IMG/VR virus record: IMGVR_UViG_3300009154_000048
Reading direction: 5' to 3' (one strand)
DNA from: an uncultured virus (IMG/VR IMGVR_UViG_3300009154_000048)
Taxonomy: Duplodnaviria > Heunggongvirae > Uroviricota > Caudoviricetes
Length of the DNA stretch: 20,000 nt
This document shows, piece after piece, positions 1 to 17,100 of this stretch. A model generated the notes under the pieces. The model was not told the DNA's origin. It did no database searches and saw only the letters and a program-made list of their open reading frames with translations. Position numbers and translations under genes: made by a program. Position 1 is the stretch's first letter. Each line of letters begins with the position of its first letter.

Positions 1-248
1 ACCCAGAATTCTTCCTCGATCTTTTCCATGATCTTTTGGATAGAGAATTTGGGATTTTTCTGCAATTGATAGCGGATTAATTGCGATTTATTCTGTTCGA
101 GATTGATTGGGATAAGAATATATTCCCGGTTTTCTTTTTCTCCCAAGGGGGCCTTTATGATATCGACCCCTAGATTTTGAAGTCTATCGTGATTTGCTCC
201 TTTTAGGAGGTCATTAAGTCTCTTCTTATTTTCTTTATTCCACCTCAT
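1..248 (-). CDS. Paralog-family protein (MRWNKENKKRL...), truncated at window edge
   Basis: Translated by hand (absent from the ORF track): MRWNKENKKRLNDLLKGANHDRLQNLGVDII..., open to base 1. AAGGAG RBS; the upstream region is nearly identical to that of 2386..2739. An in-frame upstream ATG lies at 320. Confidence 0.8.
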   Translation of the reverse strand, partial: MRWNKENKKRLNDLLKGANHDRLQNLGVDIIKAPLGEKENREYILIPINLEQNKSQLIRYQLQKNPKFSIQKIMEKIEEEFW

Positions 249-252
249 GGTA

Positions 253-280
253 TGCTCCTTGTTTCTTCTAAACCGTCTGG
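253..280 (-). promoter_or_regulatory. Half copy of the 27-bp motif plus RBS
   Basis: CCAGACGGTTTAGAAGAAACAAGGAGCA; 27/28 identical to 2745..2772. Confidence 0.6.
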
Positions 281-319
281 TTTTAATAACAACGTCTTGT
301 AGAGTTTTGTTGTCAATCA

Positions 320-517
320 TTATTTTTTCTCCAGTAAATAAGTTCCATTATCATTGAGGGTTAAAATTAGATTATTTAGTTCAAATACAACGGTATTTGC
401 AATAGTATTTTCTCTATAAACATAAGGATCAAACTCAATACTATGTGGATAGTCTTGAGAGTTTTCAACCTCTTTTGCGAATTCTTGGAAATGCTTAATT
501 TGCAAATCATTAGTCAT
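320..517 (-). CDS. Hypothetical protein (65 aa), AT-rich
   Basis: ORF with GGAG RBS (CTGGAGAAAAATAATG); markedly lower GC than its neighbours. Confidence 0.7.
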   Translation of the reverse strand: MTNDLQIKHFQEFAKEVENSQDYPHSIEFDPYVYRENTIANTVVFELNNLILTLNDNGTYLLEKK

Positions 518-606
518 TATTTTTCTCCAGGTGTGTTAAAATATCAACAGCAATATTTAAAAGATAACTACATTGATTATGACTCATTGGTCTAAGAATT
601 CAGGGC

Positions 607-894
607 TTATGGTATTCCTAGTGCGAGAAATTTTTCTGCGATGTCTTTGGGGATGCTGAGTCCGTCCATACGGTCTCCACCAGGATCGCCGACGATAATG
701 CGGTCCTTGCTTTGGGCGTTCACCCACTTTCCGTCTTTTTTTTCTTGCCAAGCCCGCGTTAACTTCGAAACTTGTACGACAGAATGTCTGGCTCTCCATT
801 CCTCGCGATCACGCCCCGATGTCATGACATTATGGTGAATTACCAGAGCCTTGTACAACTTCTTCTTGTTTTCGTTGTTCCATTTTATGGTCAT
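607..894 (-). CDS. Paralog-family protein (MTIKWNNENKKKLY...DGLSIPKDIAEKFLALGIP)
   Basis: Shares both terminal motifs with 1722..2021, 2018..2389 and 2386..2739; start set at ATG 894. Confidence 0.85.
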   Translation of the reverse strand: MTIKWNNENKKKLYKALVIHHNVMTSGRDREEWRARHSVVQVSKLTRAWQEKKDGKWVNAQSKDRIIVGDPGGDRMDGLSIPKDIAEKFLALGIP

Positions 895-905
895 TTGTCC
901 ACCAA

Positions 906-1190
906 TCAATTAAATGTATCGGAAACAACATATCTCCGACCTTCGGAAATAGTATCAATAAGTCCCCAATTCTTGAGTTTTTGAAGAGCAATATCCATAG
1001 ACTTGCGAGTAGTTGCCCTGACCACTGCTCTTTTCTGGCCCACATAACAACTGCTGCCTGTGTATGCCCAGATGCCAGAGGACTTGTCCGTGATGTACTT
1101 GCCAAAACCGGCCAAGTCAGCCTCGCCATTCCAATCCAACTTGTACCTATATTTGATCTTCATTGTTTTTTGGTTCTTCATTGTATTCAT
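906..1190 (-). CDS. Hypothetical protein (94 aa)
   Basis: ORF coupled to the upstream gene by a TAATG overlap; co-oriented with the array. Confidence 0.7.
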   Translation of the reverse strand: MNTMKNQKTMKIKYRYKLDWNGEADLAGFGKYITDKSSGIWAYTGSSCYVGQKRAVVRATTRKSMDIALQKLKNWGLIDTISEGRRYVVSDTFN

Positions 1191-1681
1191 TAAGACAACT
1201 CTCGTTTCCTTTGTTCCAATTTTTCTATATCTGACTTCATTTTTTTTAGCTTCGACTTCAAAGCCTTTATTTTTTGGCTGATCTCTTGGGTTTTGGACTT
1301 GCTTTCTTGGCTGCGTGGTGTGTGATTTTTGATATTGTAGAGGTCGAGTATGATTCGGTTGAGCCTTTTCATGTCCTTTTCGGCGGCTTTGTGGGGGTTC
1401 TCAAACTCTCTGCGAGTGAAAAATTCATCATCCCCTTGTTTCCAATAGTAAAGTTCCCATCCGTTAGCGATCAAGTACGTCCGTTCTGGCTTGCGTAGGG
1501 TTGGATTCATTTTCTTCGAGCGGAACTGGATTGAATGGTTGTTTTGCTTGAAGATAAAGCCAAGGAACTCTTCCATCCAATCTGCGTCTATTTCGCTATT
1601 GTTGAACTTACGCTTGACGAGGGATTCTGCCACCGAGCGGAAACTCATTCCGAGCAGGATTTGCGTTCGTATTGTCTTCAT
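1190..1681 (-). CDS. Hypothetical protein with C-terminal coiled coil; paralog of 2828..3412
   Basis: Blocks LGMSF, IDADWMEEFLGFIFKQNNHSIQF and LNRIILDLYNIK match LGLGF, IDLEWMENFIRLLFEKNDHDLHF and LNKFILNFYGIK. Confidence 0.85.
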   Translation of the reverse strand: MKTIRTQILLGMSFRSVAESLVKRKFNNSEIDADWMEEFLGFIFKQNNHSIQFRSKKMNPTLRKPERTYLIANGWELYYWKQGDDEFFTRREFENPHKAAEKDMKRLNRIILDLYNIKNHTPRSQESKSKTQEISQKIKALKSKLKKMKSDIEKLEQRKRELS

Positions 1682-1699
1682 ATGTGCCTTTCTTCTTAC

Positions 1700-1726
1700 T
1701 AAACCATCTGGGGTTGAGAAATCAGG
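1700..1726 (-). promoter_or_regulatory. 27-bp repeated motif copy
   Basis: CCTGATTTCTCAACCCCAGATGGTTTA; overlaps the TGA stop of 1722..2021 and precedes 1190..1681. Confidence 0.7.
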
Positions 1727-2021
1727 GCACGCCTAGTACGAGGAATTTTTCTGCTACTTCTTTGGGGATGCTGAAGGCTTCGTGCCATACGGCGTGGGCA
1801 TCCGTCAGTTGTTTGCTCATTTCGACGATAACGCAATTTTTAGGCGGCTTTGGCTTCTTTGTTTCCCTTATTCCATGACCATTCACCCAGACGATTTTGC
1901 GGTCTACGAATTGTATGTTGAATTCGTTGAGGAAACTGTCGGGGACTGTTCCGAAGGGGTGCTTAAATTTTTCTTCTAGGAGCCAGTACAGCCTATGTTC
2001 CTTGTCTTTGTCCCACTTCAT
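1722..2021 (-). CDS. Paralog-family protein (MKWDKDKEHRLY...FSIPKEVAEKFLVLGVP)
   Basis: Family motifs present; ATGA start/stop overlap with 2018..2389. Confidence 0.9.
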   Translation of the reverse strand: MKWDKDKEHRLYWLLEEKFKHPFGTVPDSFLNEFNIQFVDRKIVWVNGHGIRETKKPKPPKNCVIVEMSKQLTDAHAVWHEAFSIPKEVAEKFLVLGVP

Positions 2022-2065
2022 GGCGCACCTAGTACGAGGAATTTTTCTGCGATTTCCTTGGGGAT
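2011..2065. repeat. Gene-junction repeat (3' end of one paralog plus 5' end of the next)
   Basis: 51/55 identical to 2379..2433; the 3'-end part also recurs at about 1726..1774. Confidence 0.9.
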
Positions 2066-2389
2066 TTCCAAGCCTGCGTCCCATCTTCCTTTGTAGTTGC
2101 TGTCGTAGGGACTGGGGATGACGATGGTGTTTTTCCTTCGTTTATAATGGGGGATTGGGTCGCCGATTTTCCATTTGTGTCGGTGGTTTTCGGCTAAGGT
2201 TATGGTCTTCCATTTGCAGTCCCAATTTACCATCTTGATTTCGAAGGCGTCCAAGAAGTTGTTTATTTCTTGGGAGAATGCCCATCCCCAAGTGTCGCCG
2301 TCACGGTTGCGTAGGTCTGAGAGGATCTGATCCAATTTCTCCTTGACGAGGGACCGCAGTTGTTCTTTTATTTTCTTATCCCACTTCAT
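2018..2389 (-). CDS. Paralog-family protein (MKWDKKIKEQL...GLEIPKEIAEKFLVLGAP)
   Basis: Family motifs present; ATGA overlap with 2386..2739. Confidence 0.9.
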   Translation of the reverse strand: MKWDKKIKEQLRSLVKEKLDQILSDLRNRDGDTWGWAFSQEINNFLDAFEIKMVNWDCKWKTITLAENHRHKWKIGDPIPHYKRRKNTIVIPSPYDSNYKGRWDAGLEIPKEIAEKFLVLGAP

Positions 2390-2433
2390 GGCACACCTAG
2401 CACGAGGAATTTTTCTGCTACTTCCTTGGGGAT
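2379..2433. repeat. Gene-junction repeat
   Basis: 51/55 identical to 2011..2065. Confidence 0.9.
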
Positions 2434-2739
2434 ACTGAGGCCGTCTGTGCATCCTCTAAGCCTCAATTTGGGATAGGTTTCGCTTTGTCCCCACCATGGA
2501 TCTAGGATTATGACGCGATCCTTGTCTCTGGCGGGTGAATTGGTGTGCGGCTTCATCCACAAACTGGCGGCTCTGGTCATGTTGACCCGGTTCTTCAGCC
2601 TTTTTCCCTTTTGTACCTTTTCAATTCCAAACTCATTCAAGAAGGTATTATAAAAGACCCCCGCTGGATGGGACATTTTCTGGAACCTCAAAAAGATCAG
2701 CCGATACAGCCTATCCTTGTTTTTACTGTCCCACTTCAT
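2386..2739 (-). CDS. Paralog-family protein (MKWDSKNKDRLY...DGLSIPKEVAEKFLVLGVP)
   Basis: Family motifs present; AAGGAG RBS; 27-bp motif upstream. Confidence 0.9.
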   Translation of the reverse strand: MKWDSKNKDRLYRLIFLRFQKMSHPAGVFYNTFLNEFGIEKVQKGKRLKNRVNMTRAASLWMKPHTNSPARDKDRVIILDPWWGQSETYPKLRLRGCTDGLSIPKEVAEKFLVLGVP

Positions 2740-2760
2740 GGTCTTGCTCCTTGTTTCTTC

Positions 2761-2787
2761 TAAACCATCTGGGGGTGAGAAATCAGG
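2761..2787 (-). promoter_or_regulatory. 27-bp repeated motif copy
   Basis: CCTGATTTCTCACCCCCAGATGGTTTA; 26/27 identical to 1700..1726; precedes 2386..2739. Confidence 0.7.
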
Positions 2788-2827
2788 CCAGGAGGCTCTG
2801 GCTTGCGTTCTGTGGCCTTTTTTTATT

Positions 2828-3412
2828 TTATTGGGGTCGTGGGGGCCTTTTTGTCTTTGGGGGCTTTAATCGCGATTTAGGGCTTTTCTTTATGCCGTAG
2901 AAGTTGAGGATGAATTTATTAAGTATTTCTGCGTCGTGTTGTGCGTCTTTCTTTTGTCGATCCAAGTTTGAAGAGAAGTATAATAAGTCTTCAAGTGGCT
3001 TGAGAATGGCGATCCATGATTTTGATGAGTTCAACTGCCAAGTTGGGCTTTTTACACATATGACCTTGAAATGTAGATCGTGGTCGTTTTTCTCGAAGAG
3101 AAGTCGGATGAAATTTTCCATCCATTCGAGGTCGATTTTGTGATTTTTGATTTTTTTGACTGTTTTCAGTCCTACATGGGCTGCTTCTTTGAAGCCTAGG
3201 CCGAGGTTTATTGCTGTGCGGAGGTCTTTGGTCTTTATGCCTTTTGTTTTATTTTCGAGACGTTTATGTTCTGCTTCTGTGGCGGCTCTTCTTTTGGCTT
3301 GAATAATTGATACGGCTTGTCCTACTGCTGCCGTACTTGAGTTTGCGAGGGACTTTAGTGCGTTTATCTGTGTGAAGATGTTAGACATTTGGGCTTTTGT
3401 TATTTGTTTCAT
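2828..3412 (-). CDS. Hypothetical protein; paralog of 1190..1681
   Basis: Start placed at MKQITK because of the ATGA overlap with 3409..3783; shares sequence blocks with 1190..1681. Confidence 0.85.
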   Translation of the reverse strand: MKQITKAQMSNIFTQINALKSLANSSTAAVGQAVSIIQAKRRAATEAEHKRLENKTKGIKTKDLRTAINLGLGFKEAAHVGLKTVKKIKNHKIDLEWMENFIRLLFEKNDHDLHFKVICVKSPTWQLNSSKSWIAILKPLEDLLYFSSNLDRQKKDAQHDAEILNKFILNFYGIKKSPKSRLKPPKTKRPPRPQ

Positions 3413-3783
3413 TGGTGGCTCAAGGCTTGATGTTTGTATTCTTCTTCCCATTTGTAGTCGAGGATTAATTCTGCTGCTTCTTTTATTGCTTCTCTTTGTT
3501 CATTGGTCATGAGGAGTTCGATAGTTTTTGAGCATTCTTGTGTGTTTGCGTTGATTTCTACACTAAGGATTTTGTAGTGGGTGGGGCTTGCTTGTTCTGA
3601 TGCGCCGGGGCTATCCCCACTTGGATCCCATCCTGGGTCGATTTCGGCGTTGATTTCGACTTCGACTTCTATGTCTGCGTTTTGGAGGATTGCTTCTAGG
3701 CACTTGTAATTTTCTGGGAGGTTTAGATCTTTTGTGATGTGGACTATGGATGGGAAGCGGACGTTGTATGATCTGATTGGCAT
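3409..3783 (-). CDS. Hypothetical protein (124 aa, acidic)
   Basis: Translationally coupled ORF within the operon. Confidence 0.75.
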   Translation of the reverse strand: MPIRSYNVRFPSIVHITKDLNLPENYKCLEAILQNADIEVEVEINAEIDPGWDPSGDSPGASEQASPTHYKILSVEINANTQECSKTIELLMTNEQREAIKEAAELILDYKWEEEYKHQALSHQ

Positions 3784-4106
3784 TATTGGCTCAGTTTATT
3801 TTTTGCTTGGTTTAGAACGTCTTTGATCCATTTTTTGCTTGGGTTGTAGTCTAGGTGCATTTCGAGCATATTGATTCTTTCGACTATGTCCGAGTTGTTG
3901 TTTAAGCAGTCGGGTTCTTCGAGTGGTTCGCCTTCTGGTGATTCTTCATGTTTAGCGTAATCGAATGATTTATTAAACACTTCTAGTATTGTTTCTTCGT
4001 TGATTTTCTTTCTGATGTCTAGGTCGTGTTTTAGTTTCAAGATATAGTAACCTTGGGCTATGAGAACCCAAACTACGATGACAGAGGGGATAATTATCTT
4101 TTTCAT
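3783..4106 (-). CDS. Hypothetical membrane-anchored protein (107 aa)
   Basis: N-terminal hydrophobic segment IIIPSVIVVWVLIAQGYYIL; coupled overlaps at both ends. Confidence 0.75.
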   Translation of the reverse strand: MKKIIIPSVIVVWVLIAQGYYILKLKHDLDIRKKINEETILEVFNKSFDYAKHEESPEGEPLEEPDCLNNNSDIVERINMLEMHLDYNPSKKWIKDVLNQAKNKLSQ

Positions 4107-4540
4107 TTTTCTACGTTATTAGGGAATTTGACGGATGTTTTACGGAGTGTTTCTTTGTCTGGGGTGAGGTAGAATTGTGATTGGAGGTATTCAAACTTCT
4201 TCTTGTATTTTTCAAGAAGATTTATTTGAATATCCTCCAAGTCTGTCTTTCTCTTTCGTCCAGAAAGATCACGGCGAAATGCGTCCCGGCCTTTCAAGAG
4301 CTTTTCGATAGACTTTAATACGCACTCTGTTATCTCAAAATTAGGAAATCTGTATCCTACTGGACAGGTTTTATAAGGTTCGCAATTGGGTTCAAGTTGC
4401 AGTTGTGTTATTACGTGCATTGCGGCGATTTTTTCATCTACTGTTCCTTTCTCAACGGTGTTCTTGAAGAAGTCTTCCAGTTCACAAAGCCAATTCACAG
4501 CGTCATCATTTTGTATCGGCCCGTCGCCCCAATCGCCCAT
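4103..4540 (-). CDS. DUF4259-like protein
   Basis: N-terminus MGDWGDGPIQNDDAVNWL resembles the MGxWGxGxFxNDxAxDW signature of DUF4259. Confidence 0.6.
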   Translation of the reverse strand: MGDWGDGPIQNDDAVNWLCELEDFFKNTVEKGTVDEKIAAMHVITQLQLEPNCEPYKTCPVGYRFPNFEITECVLKSIEKLLKGRDAFRRDLSGRKRKTDLEDIQINLLEKYKKKFEYLQSQFYLTPDKETLRKTSVKFPNNVEK

Positions 4541-4564
4541 GTTGCTTTCCTTCCGCGTTAATAT

Positions 4565-5089
4565 TTATTCGTCTTCGTCGTCCTCGTCGTCATCTCCGGC
4601 ATCGGCGTCCAAAAGGGATTGTAAGTCCTCTTCATCCCCCCACACCTTGTGTTGTTTCAACTGTCTTTCCCACTCTTCGTCATCCTCATCCTCATCATCG
4701 TCTTCGTCTTCGTCTTCGTCTTCGTCAACTTCTTCCCAATTTTCTTCGTCCTCGTCCTTGATTTCTTCGGTCAAGGGCATATTTTTATCGAATAGCACAT
4801 AGATTTTGTTAGGGCTGATTCTGACTCCTATAACGTCCGTGTCTTCGTCTAGTTCGTTATTAATCGCTTCTGTGAGTGCTGCATGGAAGGCACTTGGGTA
4901 GTGTTTTGCCTTTTCTCTTAGTTCTGCGGCGACAGATTCGTTTGACATTCTAGAGGTAGGGATAGGGAATCCACCGAATTGGATAAGGTGTCTTAGGCAA
5001 TTATCATCCTTCATTCGATTGAAGTGATAATTGGTAAGTGTGCTATTGGCTTGATCGGCAGAGATTTCTACGACTTTTCTTGTGTTCAT
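4565..5089 (-). CDS. Hypothetical protein with highly acidic D/E C-terminal tail
   Basis: 174-aa ORF with AAGGA RBS; tail ...DEDEDEDEDDDEDEDDEE...DDDEDDEDE. Confidence 0.85.
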   Translation of the reverse strand: MNTRKVVEISADQANSTLTNYHFNRMKDDNCLRHLIQFGGFPIPTSRMSNESVAAELREKAKHYPSAFHAALTEAINNELDEDTDVIGVRISPNKIYVLFDKNMPLTEEIKDEDEENWEEVDEDEDEDEDDDEDEDDEEWERQLKQHKVWGDEEDLQSLLDADAGDDDEDDEDE

Positions 5090-5115
5090 TTTTTATTCCT
5101 TGGGTTTTGTTTAGG

Positions 5116-5721
5116 TCAAACAATCGTATCAAAATCGAAAAAACATGACAACAACACTTGATTTTCTTGGATATTAGCCACTGCGCTAATCAAGTTTGGA
5201 AAAAGTTTATCAGAGTATCCGTCCCAAATGGTGCAAGAATATCCGCGATCTAAGTCATGTTCGCCAACAATAAAGGACAAGAAATCCATATCGTCCATGC
5301 TCTTCGCAGTTTTTACTGTTTGGGCGATGCTATTCAACCAATCAAAGGCTTCATCAAAAAACTGAATAGGATCTAATTCTTCTCTATCCTGGTCAACATA
5401 GAATGTTCCAGTGTTAGAGTTGTAGCATTCATAAATCTTGATAAGGTATCCAAGACCATTACTGATAAAATCTTCGGTATTTTTCTTGCTTTGTTTGATG
5501 TGTTCAATGTCTTTTTCAATTGCACTGAGTAGAACGACCTTGTATTCAAAGTTTTTGATGGCTTGTTCTGGGCAATCAGAACCATATGCGCAAAAATGCG
5601 GGGATCTAACAATAAAATTGTCGTAGTCCCATTCCTTCTGATTGGAACTAACAACAAGTTCTAATTTCTCGCCACAGAGGTTGGAGACTTCATCAAGAGT
5701 AGGAATTGTTGTATTCTTCAT
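5116..5721 (-). CDS. Hypothetical protein (~201 aa)
   Basis: Long ORF; start placed at MKNTT after AAGGAAGAAAAA. Confidence 0.8.
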   Translation of the reverse strand: MKNTTIPTLDEVSNLCGEKLELVVSSNQKEWDYDNFIVRSPHFCAYGSDCPEQAIKNFEYKVVLLSAIEKDIEHIKQSKKNTEDFISNGLGYLIKIYECYNSNTGTFYVDQDREELDPIQFFDEAFDWLNSIAQTVKTAKSMDDMDFLSFIVGEHDLDRGYSCTIWDGYSDKLFPNLISAVANIQENQVLLSCFFDFDTIV

Positions 5722-5749
5722 TTTTTCTTCCTTGGGGTTTATTAACTGG

Positions 5750-6643
5750 CTAGGCACAAATCTTTTCGCACTTTAGAGCGCCGTTCTTGACGGCCCAATC
5801 GATGATTTTCTTTTTGATTTCGGAGATGTCTTGGACGGCGATGAGGGGGTCTGGACCTTCGTTCTTATTTTCGGAGAACCAGAGTGTTTCGAGACCTTGG
5901 GCGTCTCTAAAGCATAGGAAGGAGGGAATCCAATAAATGTTGCCGTGGCTGTCTGGGCTTGAAGACTTATTTGGGAATTCCTCGTCAAGAAGTTTTTCGA
6001 TACCCCGCAAATTCTTAATTGGTCCGTGTCCGTTGCTTGTGTAGATATTGTAATCCAAAAATTCATCGACGCGAGTGCCGTGTTCTTCTAGCACAAAGTC
6101 TCCGAGTCCTTGGATGAACTCAAGAATATTCTTCATGTTTTCCTTGATGACGTTGCATTCCCGCAACTGTTTGCCTTCTGCGGCTTTGATCATGTAGTCT
6201 CGTTCGCGGACTGCGGCGTCGAGCATATTGGAGGGCAGATTCTTATTGCTACGGTCTTCACGGAGTTTTTTATCAAGGGCTTTGTATTCATCGTCAGAGA
6301 CAAGTGGGTTTACATGGCGCAAAATCTTAGACTTATTATCCCAGTTGTCTTCGACTGCCTTGTTCTTATACACACAGTTCAATTCACATCTTCCGCCAAG
6401 CACAATCGCAGAGGGCGCCAACCAAGTCCCTTCTTCATTGTAAGGATATCTGTTCAAGACTTTGGCAATATTTTGCAAGCCGCTGACGTTAGACAAATAA
6501 ATATTCTCTTCAAAAAAATCTGAGAGACATCCTGTGTTGTCGGTCAAAGGAATGTGCCCGATTTCCTTGAGAAAATCGAGAAGTTCCATGATCCGAGCGT
6601 TGATCCGCAAACAATCATCGTACTGCTGGCGAGCGTTTTCCAT
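5750..6643 (-). CDS. Hypothetical protein with internally duplicated domain (297 aa)
   Basis: AAGGAG RBS; two halves share (L/I)L(D/E)F....G...L......(D/E)F...NIY.SN..G...L..I.K.L and a later W...PS / WIPS. Confidence 0.85.
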   Translation of the reverse strand: MENARQQYDDCLRINARIMELLDFLKEIGHIPLTDNTGCLSDFFEENIYLSNVSGLQNIAKVLNRYPYNEEGTWLAPSAIVLGGRCELNCVYKNKAVEDNWDNKSKILRHVNPLVSDDEYKALDKKLREDRSNKNLPSNMLDAAVRERDYMIKAAEGKQLRECNVIKENMKNILEFIQGLGDFVLEEHGTRVDEFLDYNIYTSNGHGPIKNLRGIEKLLDEEFPNKSSSPDSHGNIYWIPSFLCFRDAQGLETLWFSENKNEGPDPLIAVQDISEIKKKIIDWAVKNGALKCEKICA

Positions 6644-6665
6644 TTCATTGTCTCCTTGTGATGGT

Positions 6666-6692
6666 TTAACTGTCTGGGTTAGAGTTTTCAGG
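6666..6692 (-). promoter_or_regulatory. 27-bp repeated motif copy (divergent)
   Basis: CCTGAAAACTCTAACCCAGACAGTTAA; precedes 5750..6643. Confidence 0.6.
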
Positions 6693-7007
6693 AGAATCTT
6701 CTGGGATTGGTATGAAACCGTGGTCCGAGCAGATTTGTTCCCAATTTTCTGGGATTGGCATGAAGCCTAGCGTGAGGATTTTTTCGAGTTGTTCTCTATC
6801 AATTCCGATGTAGAGGGAGGGTCTTCCTAGGCTTGCGAACCAGTCTAGTAGGACCCAGACGGTCTTTTTGGTATTTCTTGGCTTGGTTTTTTGGACTTTT
6901 GTTTGAAAGCCCAATTTTTCCATGAGTGGAGCGTTGCTGGGGCTATGGAATGGTCCCAGTCCAGCGTCTTTGACGATGATTTCGATAATTTTTCTGGACG
7001 GGTGCAA
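6666..7007 (-). CDS. Divergent paralog-family protein (...IDREQLEKILTLGFMP plus extension)
   Basis: TTG start with GAGAGG upstream; C-terminal family motif followed by a short duplicated extension. Confidence 0.7.
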   Translation of the reverse strand: MHPSRKIIEIIVKDAGLGPFHSPSNAPLMEKLGFQTKVQKTKPRNTKKTVWVLLDWFASLGRPSLYIGIDREQLEKILTLGFMPIPENWEQICSDHGFIPIPEDSPENSNPDS

Positions 7008-7064
7008 GTTTAATAACCTCTCTGCATCCAGTGATTGTAGGTCGTTTTCCGGTGGTGTAAAGCA

Positions 7065-7406
7065 TCAAGGGCATCCTAGGACGAGAATTTTTTCAACCAT
7101 GTCTTCGGGGACGAAGATCCAAGCGGTCATCGGCTTTGGACTATGCCATCTGATCATGGTCTCGACGAAACCCTCCATTTTTCCGCTTCGGGGGGTTTGG
7201 GTTCCGTGCGCCATGGACCAGGCGCCCCAGCGGTCGTGCCGGCCCTTCTTGGGGTAGGTCTGGTGGCCCATGTTGAAGCCGCGATCCTTCAGCCAAGTGA
7301 CCGTCTTGAAATTTGGATTCCAAGCCCTCTTGGCAAGAACCCCGTCGCGTATCATCGCTTCCTTGATGATTTCGCCAAGTTTGCTGCGTAATTCTTGATT
7401 CATCAT
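7065..7406 (-). CDS. Divergent paralog-family protein (...IFVPEDMVEKILVLGCP)
   Basis: C-terminal family motif; 27-bp motif upstream. Confidence 0.8.
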   Translation of the reverse strand: MMNQELRSKLGEIIKEAMIRDGVLAKRAWNPNFKTVTWLKDRGFNMGHQTYPKKGRHDRWGAWSMAHGTQTPRSGKMEGFVETMIRWHSPKPMTAWIFVPEDMVEKILVLGCP

Positions 7407-7440
7407 TTAATCCCAATCAAGTTCGGTATTGGTTTTCTTT

Positions 7441-7467
7441 TCAACTGTCTGGCGTCGAGGAATCAGG
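7441..7467 (-). promoter_or_regulatory. 27-bp repeated motif copy
   Basis: CCTGATTCCTCGACGCCAGACAGTTGA; precedes 7065..7406. Confidence 0.65.
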
Positions 7468-7711
7468 AGTTGCCTAGAATGCGGTTTATTTTGTCTAGCC
7501 AAGGCTGTGCTTTTTTGTAGCGTATCTCGGCTAGTTCCTTGTTACCTTTTTCTGCGGCTTGATTGGCGAGATGTAGCCAATGGCCGCACATCTTCTCTGC
7601 GTGTTGAAGTCGTTCGGAATCGGCTAGGTTCTTGTCTTTGAAGAAGCCCAAGCCGTGGATAGATTTATCCCTTGGTCTTCCCCAACATATGACTTCGTAG
7701 ATTGCTTCCAT
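7463..7711 (-). CDS. Hypothetical protein (82 aa)
   Basis: ORF bounded on both sides by copies of the 27-bp motif. Confidence 0.7.
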   Translation of the reverse strand: MEAIYEVICWGRPRDKSIHGLGFFKDKNLADSERLQHAEKMCGHWLHLANQAAEKGNKELAEIRYKKAQPWLDKINRILGNS

Positions 7712-7716
7712 GTCTT

Positions 7717-7743
7717 CTAACCGTCTGAGGTCGAGAAATCAGG
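7717..7743 (-). promoter_or_regulatory. 27-bp repeated motif copy
   Basis: CCTGATTTCTCGACCTCAGACGGTTAG; precedes 7463..7711. Confidence 0.65.
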
Positions 7744-7746
7744 ACG

Positions 7747-7801
7747 CTCATTTTTTAATGGGTTCCATCCGTCAAACTTACCCCGTGTTTGATTCCGGCG
7801 A
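7747..7801. repeat. 55-bp exact direct repeat, copy 1
   Basis: Identical to 8918..8972. Confidence 0.95.
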
Positions 7802-8150
7802 AGTCCTTTATCAGATACGCGTCGATGGTTGTCATGTTGTTTTTCCAGGCTTTCCAGACGCGGTGGTTGCCGTCGATGATTTCCCATTTTCCGTCCGGTT
7901 TTTCCAGCACTAGAATTGGGAATGAAAGGTCTGCATTCATGGATCTTGTGACCCATTCGCCTTCTGCGTCCACGAACAAGCCTTTTGCGTCCTCGTATTT
8001 CTTTTGGATGTCCGAGATGTTGATGGCGACCGGTTTCAGGTTCTTTTTGGCCCAGGCGGCGATTTCGGGAACGCTGTGGTCACGTCCGTTGATCGTGTAC
8101 AGCGACTTGGGAAAATGATTTTCTGAGAGCCATTGGTGGAAGTTTTTCAC
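7755..8150 (-). CDS. ParB/sulfiredoxin-like N-terminal domain protein
   Basis: ADLSFPILV...WEIIDGNHRVWKA fits the ParB/Srx PI.V...I.DG.HR..A motif; GTG start; no HTH region visible. Confidence 0.8.
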   Translation of the reverse strand: MKNFHQWLSENHFPKSLYTINGRDHSVPEIAAWAKKNLKPVAINISDIQKKYEDAKGLFVDAEGEWVTRSMNADLSFPILVLEKPDGKWEIIDGNHRVWKAWKNNMTTIDAYLIKDFAGIKHGVSLTDGTH

Positions 8151-8154
8151 ATTT

Positions 8155-8162
8155 TATCTATG
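8155..8162 (-). promoter_or_regulatory. Putative T4-like late promoter CATAGATA
   Basis: 4 nt before the start of 7755..8150; resembles the T4 gp55 promoter TATAAATA. Confidence 0.55.
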
Positions 8163-8191
8163 CTTCTACGGATTTTAATGGGTTACGCTTG

Positions 8192-8896
8192 TCAATTATA
8201 AGAAATCGTATCGTAGCCGTGTTTGAGGGCCCATGCCGCCATTTTTTCCAACATTTGCAGGTAGTATTCCAATCTTTCTTCTGTCAGTCCGAAACTGACC
8301 ATTCTGCCGAAGGATTGGTCTGCGCTTTGGTCCGCCCTCAGGGCCATTTGCTTCTCGAAATCCGTTATTTTGGCCAACCTTATGTTGAGATCGGCCACGT
8401 TTATTTCTCCCCATCCTTCTTTGCGCATTCCGAGTAATTTGAAGATTTCCGTGGCGTTTGCGTCTGCAATGTTGATTTGGGGGGCGGGATCATCTACCGG
8501 GGTCACTGAAACTGGGATCCTGTAAACTTCCACCTTTTTCAATCTGCTGACGTCCTTCCTTACCGGTCCGTTCTGTTTCATCCTGAATTCGGGCAGGAGG
8601 TACAGCAGGGCTTTGAGCATTTTGTCTCTGGATTCTTCCGGGATCATTCCCGAATAGAAGTTTATTTCTTCCTTGCGTTCCTCGCCGTAGAAATCTCCAT
8701 CTGGTTCTATAAGATCGGAATTGTATTTGTCAAAACCTGCGGCTTCTAATTCTTTGGGGAACATCGAGTACATCTTGTCTTTAAGATGATAGCACAAGAA
8801 GTGAAGATCCTCATCTTCTTGACTTTTGTCTATTCCACTGACTTGGAAGGACACGGTTTCGTTCAGGCTTTCCAACCACTCGTTGAATTTTTTCAT
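8192..8896 (-). CDS. Hypothetical protein, possibly virion-internal (234 aa)
   Basis: N-terminus MKKFNEWLESLNE; CATATATA box just upstream. Confidence 0.85.
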   Translation of the reverse strand: MKKFNEWLESLNETVSFQVSGIDKSQEDEDLHFLCYHLKDKMYSMFPKELEAAGFDKYNSDLIEPDGDFYGEERKEEINFYSGMIPEESRDKMLKALLYLLPEFRMKQNGPVRKDVSRLKKVEVYRIPVSVTPVDDPAPQINIADANATEIFKLLGMRKEGWGEINVADLNIRLAKITDFEKQMALRADQSADQSFGRMVSFGLTEERLEYYLQMLEKMAAWALKHGYDTISYN

Positions 8897-8903
8897 TTCG
8901 CTT

Positions 8904-8911
8904 TATATATG
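8904..8911 (-). promoter_or_regulatory. Putative T4-like late promoter CATATATA
   Basis: 7 nt before the start of 8192..8896. Confidence 0.55.
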
Positions 8912-8917
8912 CGCCCC

Positions 8918-8972
8918 CTCATTTTTTAATGGGTTCCATCCGTCAAACTTACCCCGTGTTTGATTCCGGCGA
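8918..8972. repeat. 55-bp exact direct repeat, copy 2
   Basis: Identical to 7747..7801. Confidence 0.95.
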
Positions 8973-9129
8973 GGAATGATTCCAGTTCGTATCCCATCTT
9001 GTCTTTGTCTGTGTATTTTCCGATGAGGATGCCTATTTCGTTTCCTAAGTCTCCCAAGTCGCATCCTTGTGGGATTCTGGATTTCTGGAGGTGTTCGATG
9101 AGTTCGGAGGTTATGTCTTGGAGTGTCAT
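8926..9129 (-). CDS. Hypothetical protein (67 aa)
   Basis: Co-oriented ORF; its last 14 aa are identical to those of 7755..8150. Confidence 0.7.
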   Translation of the reverse strand: MTLQDITSELIEHLQKSRIPQGCDLGDLGNEIGILIGKYTDKDKMGYELESFLAGIKHGVSLTDGTH

Positions 9130-9138
9130 GGGGGGCTG

Positions 9139-9789
9139 TTACCTGAGGACTTTGGGAAACCAGACGAGGGTGGGGCTTTTCATGTCCCGTCGGATTGGGC
9201 TGATTCTGGTCACGATGGCTCCCTTCTCGCTGGCGAGCCTTTCTGCGATTCTCCTGTATATCCTTGCCCTTCCATCTTTGGAATCCTCCCTTGTGGACAT
9301 GACGATTCCGTCTGGGGCGAAGTCTTGATAGTACCTTGCGGCGACTTGGCTGATTCCGGCGAAGACTTGGAGGGCGTCCTTTGTGGAGAGGTCCGCCTCG
9401 TCCTTGTCGCTGTACTCCGTGGTGTTCCGCCAGTAGAACCTCTGTCCCACGGGCTGGTACTCGAGCTTGCACTCGCTCCTTCCGAAGTGCATTTCGACGA
9501 CCCTCTGGGTGTCGATCTCTATCTGGTTGACCCATATCGGGCCTTGGGTTTGGAGTTGCGAGAACTCGACGACGAACTGAAAGCCGGTGGGCTGTTCCGT
9601 TCCGAACTCCCCGAGGAAGTCCCTCCTCATCTCGTCCCTGGTCTTCCCTTCCGGCTTATATTCGGGGGCCGCCGAGACGAGTCCCGTGGGGGTCCTGGCC
9701 ATGGCGAAGGAGTACTTGGCCTCCATTCCGTTTCCGTGGAGCCACTTCCTGAAGCTGGCGCGGGTGTCGAGGGTCTCCTTGATTTCCAT
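9139..9789 (-). CDS. Hypothetical phage protein (216 aa), GC-rich
   Basis: Strong GC3 bias in this frame; CATAGATA box 4 nt upstream of the ATG. Confidence 0.8.
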   Translation of the reverse strand: MEIKETLDTRASFRKWLHGNGMEAKYSFAMARTPTGLVSAAPEYKPEGKTRDEMRRDFLGEFGTEQPTGFQFVVEFSQLQTQGPIWVNQIEIDTQRVVEMHFGRSECKLEYQPVGQRFYWRNTTEYSDKDEADLSTKDALQVFAGISQVAARYYQDFAPDGIVMSTREDSKDGRARIYRRIAERLASEKGAIVTRISPIRRDMKSPTLVWFPKVLR

Positions 9790-10685: not shown

Positions 10686-11753
10686 TCATAAAAGCAACTT
10701 TTTTATTGTTTTAACAAATTCTTTGTTTTCAAAATAGTCTTCATAAACACGACGAGCATTTTGAATAATGCGATCTGCTTCATCCGGATGGTCTAAATAA
10801 TAACGACATTTTTCGACAACATCAGAAAAGTCCCAATTAATAGCAACATAAGTCTCTCCATCAATGAAAAAGTTAGGCTTAGTGTCAAGATGAGCCATAG
10901 AAGGTTTTACCAATAAGCAATCATAACATACTGCTTCAAAATCACGCCAGCAACCTTCTCCCCAACCAAAAGGACTAACAACAATCTTGCTACTTTTAAT
11001 TTCCTTCTGATATTGATTATTGGGTATTAAACTATCGACAAATGATCCACTGATGGCTACTCGATAATTAGAGGATAAAAACTCAAGGGCATCAATCGCT
11101 GACTTACGATATTCGTAATACCATTCTTTTTTATGTCGATCACCAAAAGACATCCGACAAAATACATCAATTTCTTTTGGATAAAGACTGGACGATGACC
11201 AACTTTTTGAGTGCTGAAGTGCTTCTTTATAGCGTTTAGCTGTTCCCAAATTCCATCCTGGGATAATGCGTTCTTCATATCCTTTATGGACTTTTGAACC
11301 AACAGACCACTGCTCAAAATTTAGATTACAAGTGTTAGCTAAAAAATTAGTAAATTTTGACCCACCAATAAAGTCTTGGTGATAATCTTGTAAATTTTTA
11401 TAACACTGACGCTTGAGAAACTTATCAACATAAGGTAGCACATTAAAATAGTTGCTACTTGCTTGGGCCCATGGGTCAATAAAAATAAGCTTACGATGAG
11501 GATAAGTAGAGCGAATTTCTTTCAGTGTAGTTTTAACTTTATCAGGGCTTTCTCGCCAAAAAGGTTGTATAAAAATAATTTCCGAATCATATTTTTGACA
11601 AAGTTGTTGAGCCTCATCCAATGTTTCAATATTCAGATATTTGATGGTCAAATCAAGATCTTTTAAAAGATCTTGACTATGGTAGAGAAAAGGTTCATAT
11701 TGCGCTTGACTAATAGCGTCTACTCTGTTGCCCACAAAAAGTGCTGTTTTCAT
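10686..11753 (-). CDS. Glycosyltransferase (GT-B / Glyco_trans_1_2-like C-terminal domain)
   Basis: SKIVVSPFGWGE...RDFEA...CLLVKP...GETYV...DVVEK..YYL.HP.EA.RI..NA pattern. Confidence 0.8.
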   Translation of the reverse strand: MKTALFVGNRVDAISQAQYEPFLYHSQDLLKDLDLTIKYLNIETLDEAQQLCQKYDSEIIFIQPFWRESPDKVKTTLKEIRSTYPHRKLIFIDPWAQASSNYFNVLPYVDKFLKRQCYKNLQDYHQDFIGGSKFTNFLANTCNLNFEQWSVGSKVHKGYEERIIPGWNLGTAKRYKEALQHSKSWSSSSLYPKEIDVFCRMSFGDRHKKEWYYEYRKSAIDALEFLSSNYRVAISGSFVDSLIPNNQYQKEIKSSKIVVSPFGWGEGCWRDFEAVCYDCLLVKPSMAHLDTKPNFFIDGETYVAINWDFSDVVEKCRYYLDHPDEADRIIQNARRVYEDYFENKEFVKTIKKLLL

Positions 11754-11828
11754 AATTTTTACTTTTTTTCTTCAAGGAACAACTGGACTCACCTCCGCCA
11801 ACCCGAAACGAAAAAATCAACTTCTTTT

Positions 11829-12566
11829 TTATAAACTGCTATGAATATTATTTTTTAGTACATGTTTTCCCCTAAAGCCTTCTTTTATCCAAGACTTAAT
11901 AGATTCATTCATATCACAATAAGTGTTTTCATGAATCATCATTTCGTTGTGTTGTTTGTCCCAAGTGTTGTTTCCATTGAACCTATACAAATAGTGAAAA
12001 AATGGAGAGTTGTACCGTATTACCTTAATATTATCTAGCCTCTGTAGGCCCTTTGTATCTTCTCCTATTGAATCCCATTTTGGATAGATGTTGAAAAGAC
12101 ATCTTTTTTTACCCATAACCGTTCCAGGCCATGCCGAGTGTACTGCTTCTGAATTGATAGGTCTTTGTTCGACGTGTATTTTTCCATCAACTTGATGATA
12201 TTGTGCAGCCAATAAAGACACATCGTAATTTTTCATATTCTCATACTGAAATGTCAAACGGTTGCGGTGAGATATGTCGTCGTCGTCCCATTGGCACACA
12301 TATTCACCCTCAGATAAGTCTATACTAATATTTCTTGCTTCGCCAAGTTTAGTTATTTCTTTTATTTTATACATGACAGGTCTGAATCCACTGCTATAAG
12401 AGTAATCTATAAAGTGATTTACATTATTTTCTGTTGAATGAGAATAAACAACAATAAGTTCTTTGTTGCTATAATCTTGGGACAAAAAAGAATCAATCGC
12501 TTGAAAAGTTAATTTATTATCAAGCCTCTTTGTTACCATTAAACAACTTATCATTGGCAGTTTCAT
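11829..12566 (-). CDS. Glycosyltransferase family 2
   Basis: ISCLMVT, SFLSQDYSNKELIVV, LGEARN, GEYVCQWDDDD..H.NRL..Q and GED motifs. Confidence 0.9.
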   Translation of the reverse strand: MKLPMISCLMVTKRLDNKLTFQAIDSFLSQDYSNKELIVVYSHSTENNVNHFIDYSYSSGFRPVMYKIKEITKLGEARNISIDLSEGEYVCQWDDDDISHRNRLTFQYENMKNYDVSLLAAQYHQVDGKIHVEQRPINSEAVHSAWPGTVMGKKRCLFNIYPKWDSIGEDTKGLQRLDNIKVIRYNSPFFHYLYRFNGNNTWDKQHNEMMIHENTYCDMNESIKSWIKEGFRGKHVLKNNIHSSL

Positions 12567-13339
12567 ATTTTACCTATTCTTAGATTTACATTATCTTTCA
12601 AACTGTTGTAAACATTCCAACAAATAGTTTGTATTTCAAACAATTTGTTTGGCTGAATTTCCTCGTATATTCTTTGAAACTTATGCTCCCAACCTCTAAC
12701 ATGCATCTTTTTAGGATGGGGGAGACCCACAGGGCTTTCCCCAGTGAATGCTATGTAAAATAGACACGCCAGCATGTATGCTCCAAATTGCGTCATGTGT
12801 CCGTCATGGTCTGGACTGCCATACGGGATTCCATTTCCATAAACTTTTTCATCTTGATTGTTGTCATATATTTCAAATGCATGTCCTAACGGTATTAATG
12901 TACAGTCTTTGTGTTTGTTTACATATTTAATTGGATATTCAATAAGAGCATCTTTTTTAAGTCGTCCTTTTGAGTGCAAAAACAACCATGGCTCTATAAT
13001 AAACACATTCTTACTTTGATTATGGAGACTCTTAAACACTTTCTTGCGTATTAAAATGTACTTGTCGCGTGTTGAAATGTGCTTGTCTTTTTTTTCTTCT
13101 GGCCAAAAATCTTTTTTAGGTCTAAAAGAGTGCAATATTGCAGATATGTCTGATTTTTCTATGGAAGAACAATAATCATCTAATGAATGTCCTTGTTCTA
13201 AGAAACGATGATTTTCAAATTCTTTAAAGCCCGTTGTTATTTTAATACTAGAATGATCGTTGATAATATCTTCAATCCACAAATGAGTTTGATACCAAGA
13301 CAACAAACAATTTCCATATAAATTAACTGAGGTATTCAT
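12563..13339 (-). CDS. SGNH/GDSL-hydrolase-like protein (possible O-acyl modification)
   Basis: N-terminal LYGNC; IPLGHAF; D..GH...GAY..AC..Y...TG.SP.GLP. Start set by ATGA overlap. Confidence 0.6.
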   Translation of the reverse strand: MNTSVNLYGNCLLSWYQTHLWIEDIINDHSSIKITTGFKEFENHRFLEQGHSLDDYCSSIEKSDISAILHSFRPKKDFWPEEKKDKHISTRDKYILIRKKVFKSLHNQSKNVFIIEPWLFLHSKGRLKKDALIEYPIKYVNKHKDCTLIPLGHAFEIYDNNQDEKVYGNGIPYGSPDHDGHMTQFGAYMLACLFYIAFTGESPVGLPHPKKMHVRGWEHKFQRIYEEIQPNKLFEIQTICWNVYNSLKDNVNLRIGKI

Positions 13340-14100
13340 TTGTATTTCTCCCAAGTTTTATAGATAGTATCTGTCCAACCGTCACATCTCCACCATGTAT
13401 GAAATGATATGGTGTCCGGTTTCCTGGCTGCAAAATGTAAGATGGATATCTTGTCATAATTGTATTTGTTGATTCCATCGTCTTTAAAGTTTAAAAACTG
13501 TGGTTGAAAATTAAAATAAACATCGTCTTCTATTTTGACGTCATTAGATTTACACCACATTGAGATAATGGATTGGTCGGCGAAGATGCTCTCGTTGGAA
13601 AAAGTATCTGTCATTTCGTACAATTGCTTGTAGTTGTCATCAGTTATGTGTCGCTTATTGACTACGAATACGCCCGCATTGCACATGGGTATTGATATGT
13701 TCTTAAAAGCCCTAGCCATGTCTTCGCTTTCATTGTTTGTAAAAAACCTACTGTCTCCATTAAATATATTGTCACATGGCTTTAAAATTACAGTATCGCA
13801 ATCTAAGTGCATAACATTATCAAAATCATCAAAGTATTTCTTGTTCCAGCAATTGTATTTATTGTAAACTATTTTGTTGTTTACCGGACCAAGATTTAAA
13901 AATTCATGATCATCATCTATTTTTACCAACTTAACACGATCATTAAAAGTTTTGAGGAAGTCTAAAAATTGCGATGTAAGAGTATCATAAAAGATAAACA
14001 CCTTAGGATGGTTCGCCCAGTTGATTCTCAAACTATTTAAGCAGTTTGTGGCATACTTTTCATAGTTGTTATCAAGAGCCATGTAGATAGCGTTATTCAT
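13336..14100 (-). CDS. Glycosyltransferase family 8
   Basis: ALDNNY, VMHLDCDTVI (DxD), NAGVFV, ADQSII, FNFQ and ILHFA..KP motifs. Confidence 0.9.
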   Translation of the reverse strand: MNNAIYMALDNNYEKYATNCLNSLRINWANHPKVFIFYDTLTSQFLDFLKTFNDRVKLVKIDDDHEFLNLGPVNNKIVYNKYNCWNKKYFDDFDNVMHLDCDTVILKPCDNIFNGDSRFFTNNESEDMARAFKNISIPMCNAGVFVVNKRHITDDNYKQLYEMTDTFSNESIFADQSIISMWCKSNDVKIEDDVYFNFQPQFLNFKDDGINKYNYDKISILHFAARKPDTISFHTWWRCDGWTDTIYKTWEKYK

Positions 14101-17100
14101 ATTGCTCCCTCAATTCATCTATTTGGTCTTTGTTTATTATTGACTCGTAGATGACTTCAAAAGGTATACTCTTAAATAAGTCATACGTAGGATCAGAAAA
14201 GTTTCTTGCTCCTATATAATCAATTATTTCTGAAAAGTCACTAGTGTTGTTTCTATAAATATTTTCATAACTTACCTCTAAGTATGGTATTCCATTATGA
14301 TCAAAATGGTTTTTCCATCCATTATATCTGGACAATACCCCGTCTATCCACCCAGATGCCCATTCCTCATCTATTCTAAAAGGTTCTACTTCTTTTACAT
14401 CGACCCCAGTATGCCATACCCCGCTGCTGTGAGCATACGCACAATCTATCATGGCATTAAAAATATTTTGCCTGCCCAATAGAATTACTTTGAATTCATC
14501 GCTTATGTTGTTATATGGAACTGATTCTGGCTCATCCCAAATATTAAATCTAAAACCGCAAAACTTCTTATCATTACTCATCAAGATTAAGTCCCAATAA
14601 GAACTTAAAAAGTCAGAAGGTGACGTTATTCTGTTGTAATCCAAAACTTGTGATATTCTTGTTCTGTCCTTTTGAAAAATGTCATGATCCAAGAATATGT
14701 CTTTATGTTTACAAAGAACTTGCTTCATATTATTAAACCCACATCTCGGTTGCGTTAGTATGATAAATTTTTGTCTATCTGCGTTTTGTATGTTTATATT
14801 GGTGAATAGATTTGATGAATTTATTTGTTTGGTCTTGACTTCCCTATTAATTCTATCTGGAATTTTTGATATTATTCCAATAGAGCCGACTGTCTGTTTG
14901 ACATATTCTGGTGGTATCTTTTCAAAGACATTGCTGAAGTTTGAATCAAATATTACAGTGCCCTCGGTCGAAAGATACTTTTCTATTTTACTGAAAGATG
15001 TTACATAGTCAAACACCATGATCACATCACATTTTTCTTCAATATACTTTACTTCTTCAAAATCCACACCTTTCAGTATGTTTTTGTTTCCTAATATACA
15101 AACTTTCTTATTTTCGCAGATCATTTTTATCAATTTTGACTCGGTCTCATCGCCCAAGTCGTCAATATGTTTAGAAGAATCTTCTATTCCTCTCCAAACA
15201 TAATCCGTCTTGGATAGAAAAATTTCTGGCTTACTGCTGTCTCCCCATTTTTTTGGTAGATTCTCTATGTCGAATCCTTTTTCTAAAACGCCGTATGAAT
15301 ACCAGTCATCATGGAAATAATGGTCTTGTTCTTGGAAGCAAAAGCCTCCTATGTCATCCCACAATTTCTTTCTAGTGAATATGAAGCTTCCATTTGGCAA
15401 GTACAGTCTTTTGAAATTGTTGTCTAGAGCATTTAGTAGTTTACCAGAGAACCAACTGGCATTTACTAGTTTGTGGGATTCTTTATTGGTCAAATTCGGA
15501 TTGGCATTTGGTCTTATATTGTACTCAAGGGTTTCTCCACTCCAAAAAGTTCCTGGGCAACGGACGTCGTCATAATGCCAGCCTATTAGTCCAGTTTTTT
15601 CATTTTGCTCCATTCTATTCAAACACCATTCTACGCACTCTTCACTAACAAGCATATCGTTGTTGATAACTGCTATGTATTTCCCTTTTGCATATTGCGT
15701 AGCCAACGCCAATCCATTTATGTGTCCATGGTTTTTTGTGGCGAATATAAGCTTGTCAATTATTCCCAAGTTGTTAAAGTGTTTCAAAGTTTCACGATGA
15801 ATTACGCTTTCATCATGAACTACTGCTATTATTTCATGCTTTGAATTTTTCCACTGTGTGAATCTTTGCATCCATTCATAAGTCATCAGTGTTTCTTTTC
15901 CGTAAGTAGTAAACAAAATGGAAACCAGTTTGTCTTTTTCTGGCGTGATGTCAATTCTGTCAAAGGTTGACATGTTGCCATTTTTTATAGATTCGCTATG
16001 AGTTTTCCTATAAGCGTATATCTTTTTGTTTTTAATTACCACGGCTCTTCTTTTGGATTCAAATATTTCTTTAACTTTATCGATGTCTTTTTTGACGGGA
16101 TTTACAATTACGATCTGTCCATTAAAAAATTCATGTATATTTCTGTCTCTATACTTTGCGTTATCTAAGTCATATTTCACGCATTTAATGTTTTTTACAT
16201 TGTTTACAACAAAGATATCTCTAACCATATTATCGGAAATTAAGTATTGAATATCTTTGACTGAAACGCGCTTGTTAAAAATAACAGTTATGCTATCAAC
16301 GGGACTAATGAAATTGCAACCAATGTATTTTAGAAGTTCATCCTTGCCCATTTTGTTGACTTTTGCATACTCTTCATAGTTGGAATTCCAGTACTCTGTG
16401 CCCAAACCATTTTCTTCATCACTTCTGGAATGGTTCATGTGGTAACAGGTTGACTTTTTGGAGTTGTATCTTGTATGTCCAAGAATCTCAAATCTAGCCT
16501 CTATCTCATCATCCTCAAATCCCCATTGATAGAAGTTCTCATTGTAATTGCCGCACTGGTTCAGACATTCGCGATCAAACATGACGCAACCGCCATTGTT
16601 TCCGCCGCCTGATGTGTGATAGCGAGTGCTAAATCTTATTTTATATCCGGGATCAATTGTGTCTGATGGAAAATCCTTTAGTTTGGTGTAATTGATATCC
16701 TTGGTAAATTTGTTTAACACATCTCCGTCAATATCAACAAACCAACCGTTATAAGGATAAGATATTTTGTAATTATCATTTATTATACTGTCAACAGAAT
16801 CTTTTATTCCGTCTGGTTTTATGATGGCATCGATGTCCCACACGCACACTATTTTTCTTTTTGATAAACTAATGCCGATATTTATAGCCGATGTTTTATT
16901 GTATGTTTCTTTGACGTGGCGATATTCTACATTCTTGTTGTGATACAAAATTTTACATTTTTCACTCTGCATTTCCACGACGTATATCTTGTAGTTAACA
17001 AAAAACTTCTGTATGTATTTCAATAAGCAAGTTATATTTCTAAATCTTTCTACTGTATCGATATAGGTTGGAATAATTATGTCAACGTCTGTCAAATCAT

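Follow-up and report, generated by a model that had tools for sequence, protein, structure and literature searches.

What keeps the ends of a set of small phage genes alike, at one end down to the synonymous codons, beside middles that can no longer be aligned as DNA? This question is raised by a 20,000-nucleotide stretch of an uncultured Caudoviricetes virus (IMG/VR record IMGVR_UViG_3300009154_000048), which was analysed over its full length and is called here the window. Its first 10 kb contain six minus-strand genes that share a conserved 3' end, hereafter the tail, and together with one relative that has only the conserved N-terminal part, the head, they are a single protein family found in metagenomes only. 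We think it probable that this pattern arose from constraint on the protein combined with exchange through the tails, both by unequal crossing-over and by gene conversion. The process is then ordinary recombination between repeated genes, a known process seen in a new family. The family members, their tails and their junctions are as follows, with the supporting evidence in brackets (ORF, open reading frame).

2386 to 2739, minus strand: family member of 117 amino acids, first of a tandem trio (ORF, 17 homologues, alignments, AlphaFold2 model)
2018 to 2389, minus strand: family member of 123 amino acids, with ATGA overlaps with the upstream and the downstream gene (ORF, alignment)
1722 to 2021, minus strand: family member of 99 amino acids, last gene of the trio, missing in a related contig of metagenome run X2 (ORF, alignment, joint 1769->2097)
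607 to 894, minus strand: family member of 95 amino acids counted from the ATG at 894, missing in the X2 contig along with 252-606 (joint 251->895)
7065 to 7406, minus strand: divergent family member of 113 amino acids with the tail VPEDMVEKILVLGCP (ORF, alignment, orthologues P0101-P0103)
6666 to 7007, minus strand: degenerate or atypical member with no ATG and an internal tail motif at 6766-6785 (ORF, alignment, repeat)
3 to 251, minus strand: head-only relative (MRWNKENKKRL...), whose 3' end lies beyond the window (hhalign, upstream repeat)
1722 to 1769, minus strand: 48-nucleotide tail (IPKEVAEKFLVLGVP plus stop) (repeats, alignment)
607 to 654, 2018 to 2065, 2386 to 2433 and 7065 to 7112, minus strand: tails equivalent to 1722 to 1769
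2011 to 2065, minus strand: tail-head junction across an ATGA overlap, 51/55 identical to 2379-2433
2379 to 2433, minus strand: second tail-head junction, 51/55 identical to 2011-2065

Read on the minus strand, all six tails are spelled GAA AAA TTY/ATY CTC nnn CTA GGn, which bears out the shared codons that a preliminary description of this DNA had reported at six CCTAG sites; its statement that the two junctions are ATGA overlaps with 51 of 55 identical letters was likewise correct. The pattern GAAAAAWTYCTCNNNCTAGG had six perfect matches, all of them in family tails, and no further match was found in the 20 kb at up to two mismatches, where shuffled sequences lead one to expect 0.02. The claim that the tails use the same synonymous codons throughout was too broad: four codons are fixed, but the copies differ in the codon for the K of IPK and at the third positions of F/I, V, G and P.

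To judge this likeness, codon usage was taken from the window's 16 non-family genes (GAA 0.79, AAA 0.59, CTC 0.30, CTA 0.15), and, after the six copies had been put into a codon-aware alignment, same-codon pairs were counted at identical residues. The tail had 100 same-codon pairs out of 129 against 52.3 expected from codon usage, whereas the head (14 of 35 against 13.9) and the middle (68 of 155 against 60.4) were both at expectation. When codons were drawn from the window usage in 5000 simulation runs, with a tail range slightly wider than in the direct count, the 107 same-codon pairs of the tail (57.5±7.2 expected, standard deviation) were reached in 0 of 5000 runs, the 14 of the head (13.9 expected) in 2621 and the 68 of the middle (60.5 expected) in 656. 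The excess at silent sites is thus real, restricted to the tail and larger than codon bias can account for. Silent-site identity had been described for both ends of the genes; it holds for the tail but not for the head (ATGAAGTGGGA), whose synonymous identity is at expectation and therefore needs no explanation beyond the amino acids. Codon bias alone, which the preliminary description had set against its own proposal, does not explain the tail.

A related explanation combines shared ancestry with a bias towards major codons where residues are strongly conserved and involves neither recombination nor a nucleotide signal. GAA, AAA, CTC and ATC are indeed the codons that the other genes of the window use most for these residues, but the non-major codons CTA (0.15), CCC (0.33) and GCA (0.40) are fixed in 6/6, 5/5 and 4/4 copies, respectively. 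The head, equally conserved as protein, lacks the excess, no simulation run attained the tail value, and array content varies at family ends (see below), all of which makes ancestry with codon preference quite unlikely to be the full account.

The middles had been called unalignable, which is right for the DNA and wrong for the proteins. The six ORFs could be aligned as proteins into one family with the motifs MKWDxxNKxxLY, FLxEFGI, (K)DRIIILDP and GLSIPKEVAEKFLVLGxP, the last followed directly by the stop. A word-indexed search returned 17 homologues, and a profile search of 1.84 billion representatives returned 82 clusters (50% identity), 35 of them at E <= 1e-10. Nearly all 82 clusters end exactly at the tail, which is the most conserved protein motif of the family. 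Neither Pfam (E<=0.1) nor PHROGs (E<=0.01) matched any of the six members (0/6). The AlphaFold2 model, built from 54 sequences, reached a predicted local distance difference test score (pLDDT) of 85 and a predicted template modelling score of 0.80, with a layout of two N-terminal helices, a small sheet, a strand at 99-104 and a helix at 105-114. The pLDDT was 93 for the head helix, 96-98 for the tail (strand plus helix) and 65-77 for the middle loops. The N-terminal helix (MKWDxxNKxxLY) and the C-terminal strand and helix (GLSIPKEVAEKFLVLGxP) form the conserved structural core of the family, and the middle loops are free to vary; conserved ends beside divergent middles are thus in the first place explained by the protein itself. 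Foldseek with the model gave best E values of 0.93 against PDB and 0.98 against BFVD, and VIA a best Z of 3.6, hence no fold match, which does not amount to proof of a new fold.

The analysis thus defines a compact family of 82 clusters with a confident model and without Pfam, PHROG or fold match. A resemblance of the 'IPKE' stretch to AbrB/SpoVT-like proteins was dropped because Pfam gave no match at E<=0.1. The nearest ESM Atlas entries were clusters of short DDE_5 transposase fragments (0.89, 130-135 of 256 features); they lie below the trust line and were treated as noise. Multiplication in phage arrays is the pattern expected of host-takeover or counter-defence genes, and the members of the family may be of this kind.

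If the array has been shaped as we propose, protein constraint would keep about 48 nucleotides of DNA alike among the paralogs, and the tails would be the only stretches permitting misaligned homologous pairing. The longest exact runs shared between tails measure 17-23 nucleotides within the trio and 11-16 nucleotides with the 607 copy. Unequal crossing-over at the tails would remove or add whole in-frame units, and short conversion patches would slow silent-site divergence and partly homogenise the silent sites. No dedicated cassette enzyme would be needed; general phage or host recombination would suffice. Selection on the protein would itself keep a 48-nucleotide coding repeat recombinogenic.

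Evidence on this point came from contigs of four metagenome runs, which were compared with positions 1-9500 of the window at a likeness of at least 80%. Contigs of run X1 reproduced the window order with 0 differences, and one of them spans both ATGA junctions. Record 17 of run X2 (2804 nucleotides, depth 6.4) covers 1-251, 895-1769, 2097-2787 and 2803-2954. From 1769 to 2097 it has 31 letters against 327 in the window, and this net loss of 296 nucleotides is the exact spacing of homologous tail positions in genes 1722 and 2018, that is, one tail-to-tail unit; the result is a hybrid in which the reading frame is kept. The same record is without 252-894, with 895 joined to 251 and 4 letters between them, from family start codon to family start codon, and it carries 240 additional letters adjoining an intergenic motif at 2751-2790 (joint 2787->2803). 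Record 23 of run X9 has room for no more than about 273 letters between 1211 and 2742, against 1530 in the window, and the tandem trio is therefore missing there. Another X9 contig has 22 letters in place of 2868-3408, nearly all of gene 2828-3412.

These contigs, which for X2 and X9 come from other lake metagenomes, show that array content differs among relatives and that the breakpoints lie at family ends. Comparing array order across strains had been suggested earlier as a check, and content indeed proved variable, X2 lacking the 296-nucleotide unit and 252-894, and X9 lacking the trio. Such strain-level contigs let one see how small genes come and go in the gene-flux region of an uncultured freshwater phage. 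Swaps of middles between fixed junctions and circles did not appear in the contigs, a result that does not extend to a read-level search for mini-circles, which was not made. Three X1 joints (1763->2722, 1766->1 and 2771->1720) were not used as evidence of circles, their sides being only 30-47 letters long and the letters between the sides being known for the last joint only (9 letters). They are most simply other loci with a family tail, head or motif.

A second line of evidence is provided by an orthologue, P0017, of the 607-894 protein. It differs from that protein at 2 of 80 positions in the body and at 4 of 15 in the tail (Fisher p = 0.005), and in this protein-level comparison its tail is identical to the 1722/2386 type. 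P0016 and P0100 differ from each other at 3/78 body and 3/15 tail positions. P0100 is a 607-894 orthologue from another metagenome, and its called N-terminus, MKCAMKW, resembles a family tail read out of frame through an ATGA junction, which in the window gives RCAMKW; from this likeness, the P0100 gene may stand directly behind another family tail in its own contig, unlike its counterpart in the window.

Because of the silent-site excess, the in-register indels among relatives and the one tail-swapped orthologue, we infer that crossing-over and conversion have taken place. The recombination through gene ends put forward in the preliminary description is accordingly retained in so far as it concerns gain or loss in the array (X2 and X9 contigs) and the P0017 tail, but not for the swapping of middles.

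The pattern corresponds to region-restricted concerted evolution, in which gene conversion and unequal crossing-over act in paralog arrays. As in that process, the family has silent-site similarity in one segment of otherwise saturated paralogs, in-register copy-number changes among relatives and one orthologue with a paralog-type tail. The difference is that the homogenised segment is very short here (48 nucleotides, with exact runs of 17-23 nucleotides). It is also the family's most conserved protein motif, and selection and conversion are therefore not cleanly separable. The process being textbook, the value of the case lies mainly in the annotation of the family and in a clean example.

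Several observations weigh against exchange through the tails. Tail change is not generally raised: 31 close orthologue pairs differ at 196/3128 body and 47/465 tail positions, and 14 of the 47 tail differences come from one register shift (P0014/P0015). Orthologue pairs of the 7065 type have 0/15 tail differences and the other orthologue groups 0-2/15. The tails of 7065 and 6666 share at most 8 exact nucleotides with the others, which is too little for homologous exchange, yet they have the same GAA AAA ... CTC ... CTA. Fixed and free silent sites are interleaved alike in every copy, which also fits site-specific selection. The strain evidence consists of single assembled metagenome contigs, and the tail-to-tail joint could be a graph artefact at a repeat; each array event may have been a gain or a loss. 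Four-gamete clashes in the tail, where columns 126, 128 and 136 conflict, fit conversion and recurrent change under constraint alike.

These points bear on a rival explanation that we regard as possible though rather unlikely, namely that a lineage-specific nucleotide signal in the tail fixes the silent sites by selection, recombination being merely a side effect. Candidates for the signal are a processing site, a site bound by a protein or an RNA and, serving the coupled downstream gene, an AGG ribosome-binding element. Besides the two distant copies, which keep the codons despite their short exact identity, it is favoured by the four codons, the non-preferred CTA (0.15) among them, being invariant in 6/6 copies beside varying silent sites (K of IPK; F/I, G, P), and by a CTAGGTG 4 nucleotides ahead of the next ATG in 2/6 copies, a possible Shine-Dalgarno site. 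Against it, RNA structure was not detected in any of the six tail regions (z -0.17 to +1.20), no Rfam family matched at gathering score, and neither promoter-like nor terminator-like sites were seen at the tails; 4/6 tails have no coupled downstream gene, and no other gene in the window ends with the motif. With the two distant copies taken as a single lineage, codon usage alone would make them match the other group with a probability of about 0.02. CTAG was also considered as a rare word and dropped, being neither avoided nor enriched in the window (36 observed against 36.8 expected), which likewise speaks against a signal. Dual coding through the -1 frame of the tail (RKIPRxRCA leading into the next ATG at the two coupled junctions) was rejected, being ruled out by a TGA in the -1 frame of the 7065 tail and by the 607 and 1722 tails leading into no gene.

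A further argument against the signal comes from a distant member encoded in another genome (L001, GC content 0.54). It is a genuine member (hhalign probability 99.9%), and its tail is spelled GAG AAG ATC CTC GTC CTC GGT; the protein therefore does not require the nucleotide motif. The alternative of a DNA- or RNA-level signal, already mentioned in the preliminary description, is thus weakened by the missing RNA structure and by the codons of L001, and keeps in its favour the four codons of the distant copies at up to 8 nucleotides of exact identity. Other ORFs of L001, with the endings ...LVLGYLP and ...VVMGGLP, reached an hhalign probability of only 30-38% and were left out of the family. 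Proteins or alignments used as queries against contigs of viruses, metagenomes and species genomes gave no confirmed relative besides L001, degenerate tail patterns had no matches in viral or genome contigs, and megablast and tblastn searches of INPHARED found no match. A looser tail pattern picked out L002, a chance match inside an unrelated ORF of 424 amino acids.

The short uniform units with conserved ends could also recall a dedicated cassette system that moves variable middles between fixed junctions, be it integron-like, driven by a site-specific recombinase, or a diversity-generating retroelement; a fibre gene with an Mtd_N domain at 19116-20000 and the gene-sized indels in relatives would suit it. 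We consider such a system most improbable. A Pfam scan of 29 window ORFs brought up no integrase, recombinase or reverse-transcriptase family, in agreement with the earlier remark that the window holds no recombinase, and the observed indels are those expected of plain unequal crossing-over. Integron cassettes combine an attC site with the integrase IntI, and they resemble the array in forming rows of short one-gene units with a conserved 3'-end element. The window tails, however, lack an attC-type imperfect hairpin, no integrase is among the 29 ORFs scanned, and the conserved element is here translated and part of the protein fold. The comparison with diversity-generating retroelements fails because the DNA of the middles does not align, which leaves no template/variable repeat pair; of the rest, the reverse transcriptase had no match and only the Mtd_N domain is at hand.

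Recombination between repeated genes, the reading that we prefer, gains from a second pair of repeats in the same region, which is listed here together with the intergenic motif.

2751 to 2790, minus strand: intergenic motif of about 40 nucleotides, lying between a stop codon and the next ribosome-binding site (repeats, alignment)
1690 to 1729, 6656 to 6695, 7431 to 7470 and 7707 to 7746, minus strand: further copies of the intergenic motif, with a half copy at 253 to 280
7747 to 7801, minus strand: stretch of 55 nucleotides, 100% identical to 8918 to 8972 (repeat)

The 55-nucleotide stretch comprises the last 14 codons (AGIKHGVSLTDGTH), the stop and the 10 bases that follow it. It is shared by two ORFs, 7755-8150 (131 amino acids) and 8926-9129 (67 amino acids), which are alike only in their last residues. 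These 55/55-identical 3' ends of unrelated ORFs imply that DNA-level exchange at gene ends occurs in this genome. X1 contigs break at both copies of the stretch.

The intergenic motif has an invariant CCAGA..GTT core, and in two copies the upstream stop codon lies inside the CCTGA at its start. Its hairpin is weak (z = -1.56 for one copy), a terminator-like stem adjoins the copy at 2751-2790, and the motif is a candidate promoter, weak hairpin or protein-binding site. Two minus-strand ORFs, 1190-1681 and 2828-3412, are paralogs with 29% identity over 126 residues, and the intergenic motif follows each of them, so that the region seems to be built of larger duplicated blocks.

The nearest described phage system is that of the PeSL cassettes of T4-type phages (Arbiol et al. 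2010; PMC2839356), where short repeats border small genes of unknown function in a hyperplastic region. The PeSLs are proposed there as recombination sites for the addition, deletion or replacement of genes between close relatives, and they are intergenic elements of about 100 bp with a sigma-70-type promoter and a stem-loop terminator. PeSLs and the window tails are both repeats at the borders of small genes in a phage gene-flux region; the tails differ in being coding and in having no promoter-like site, terminator-like site or fold (z -0.17 to +1.20). The intergenic motif of the window (2751-2790 and its copies) is nearer to the PeSLs in its position.

Tail spelling might be a selected, lineage-specific recombination or regulatory handle within coding sequence which, with the intergenic motif, would make up a coding-embedded counterpart of the PeSL, although we judge this unlikely. 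Were it true, the phage lineage could use the handle to reassort, with the reading frame kept, members of a new family of small proteins that are probably host-directed.

Some members deserve separate mention. Gene 2386-2739 is preceded by the intergenic motif and an AAGGAG ribosome-binding site. The 28 nucleotides upstream of the head-only ORF 3-251 are 96% identical to those upstream of 2386-2739, and hhalign matches this ORF to the family over 18 head columns only (probability 93%). The preliminary description had counted six complete members, which does not hold for 6666-7007: this ORF has no ATG, contains the tail motif internally, continues for 24 more codons that hold a 25-nucleotide repeat spaced 48 nucleotides, and follows the TGA of 7065-7406 in the same frame. 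A tandem copy that has decayed, a gene that once had two domains and a product of read-through are all conceivable. ORFs 7065-7406 and 6666-7007, both on the minus strand, are in the same frame with a single TGA between them, and PE[ND]-rich, linker-like stretches follow the tail motifs of both.

As to the setting, we read the window as part of the genome of an uncultured freshwater tailed phage. Its sequence is present in freshwater and lake-water metagenomes, and the contigs that encode exactly matching proteins are up to 80.8 kb long. The first 10 kb, a gene-flux region, are filled with small minus-strand genes of unknown function, many of them coupled via ATGA overlaps, and in the Pfam scan of the 29 window ORFs these small ORFs gave weak sub-threshold matches only. 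Neither tRNA genes nor Rfam families (at gathering score) were found in the window. ORF 4565-5089 contains an acidic, GAT/GAA-rich low-complexity stretch (4565-4760) which draws hundreds of unrelated metagenome contigs and produces a depth spike; joints reported there are unreliable.

Farther on, a block of glycosyltransferase genes occupies 10686-18820 on the minus strand, with a GC content of 0.32-0.35 against 0.45-0.5 around it. It encodes a protein of 1575 amino acids that combines three GT2 domains with a sulphotransferase-like end, and resembles a glycan-modification island which the phage contig has acquired. The plus-strand ORF at 19116-20000, in which the N-terminal Mtd_N fibre domain is followed by poly-serine linkers, runs out of the window at its end.

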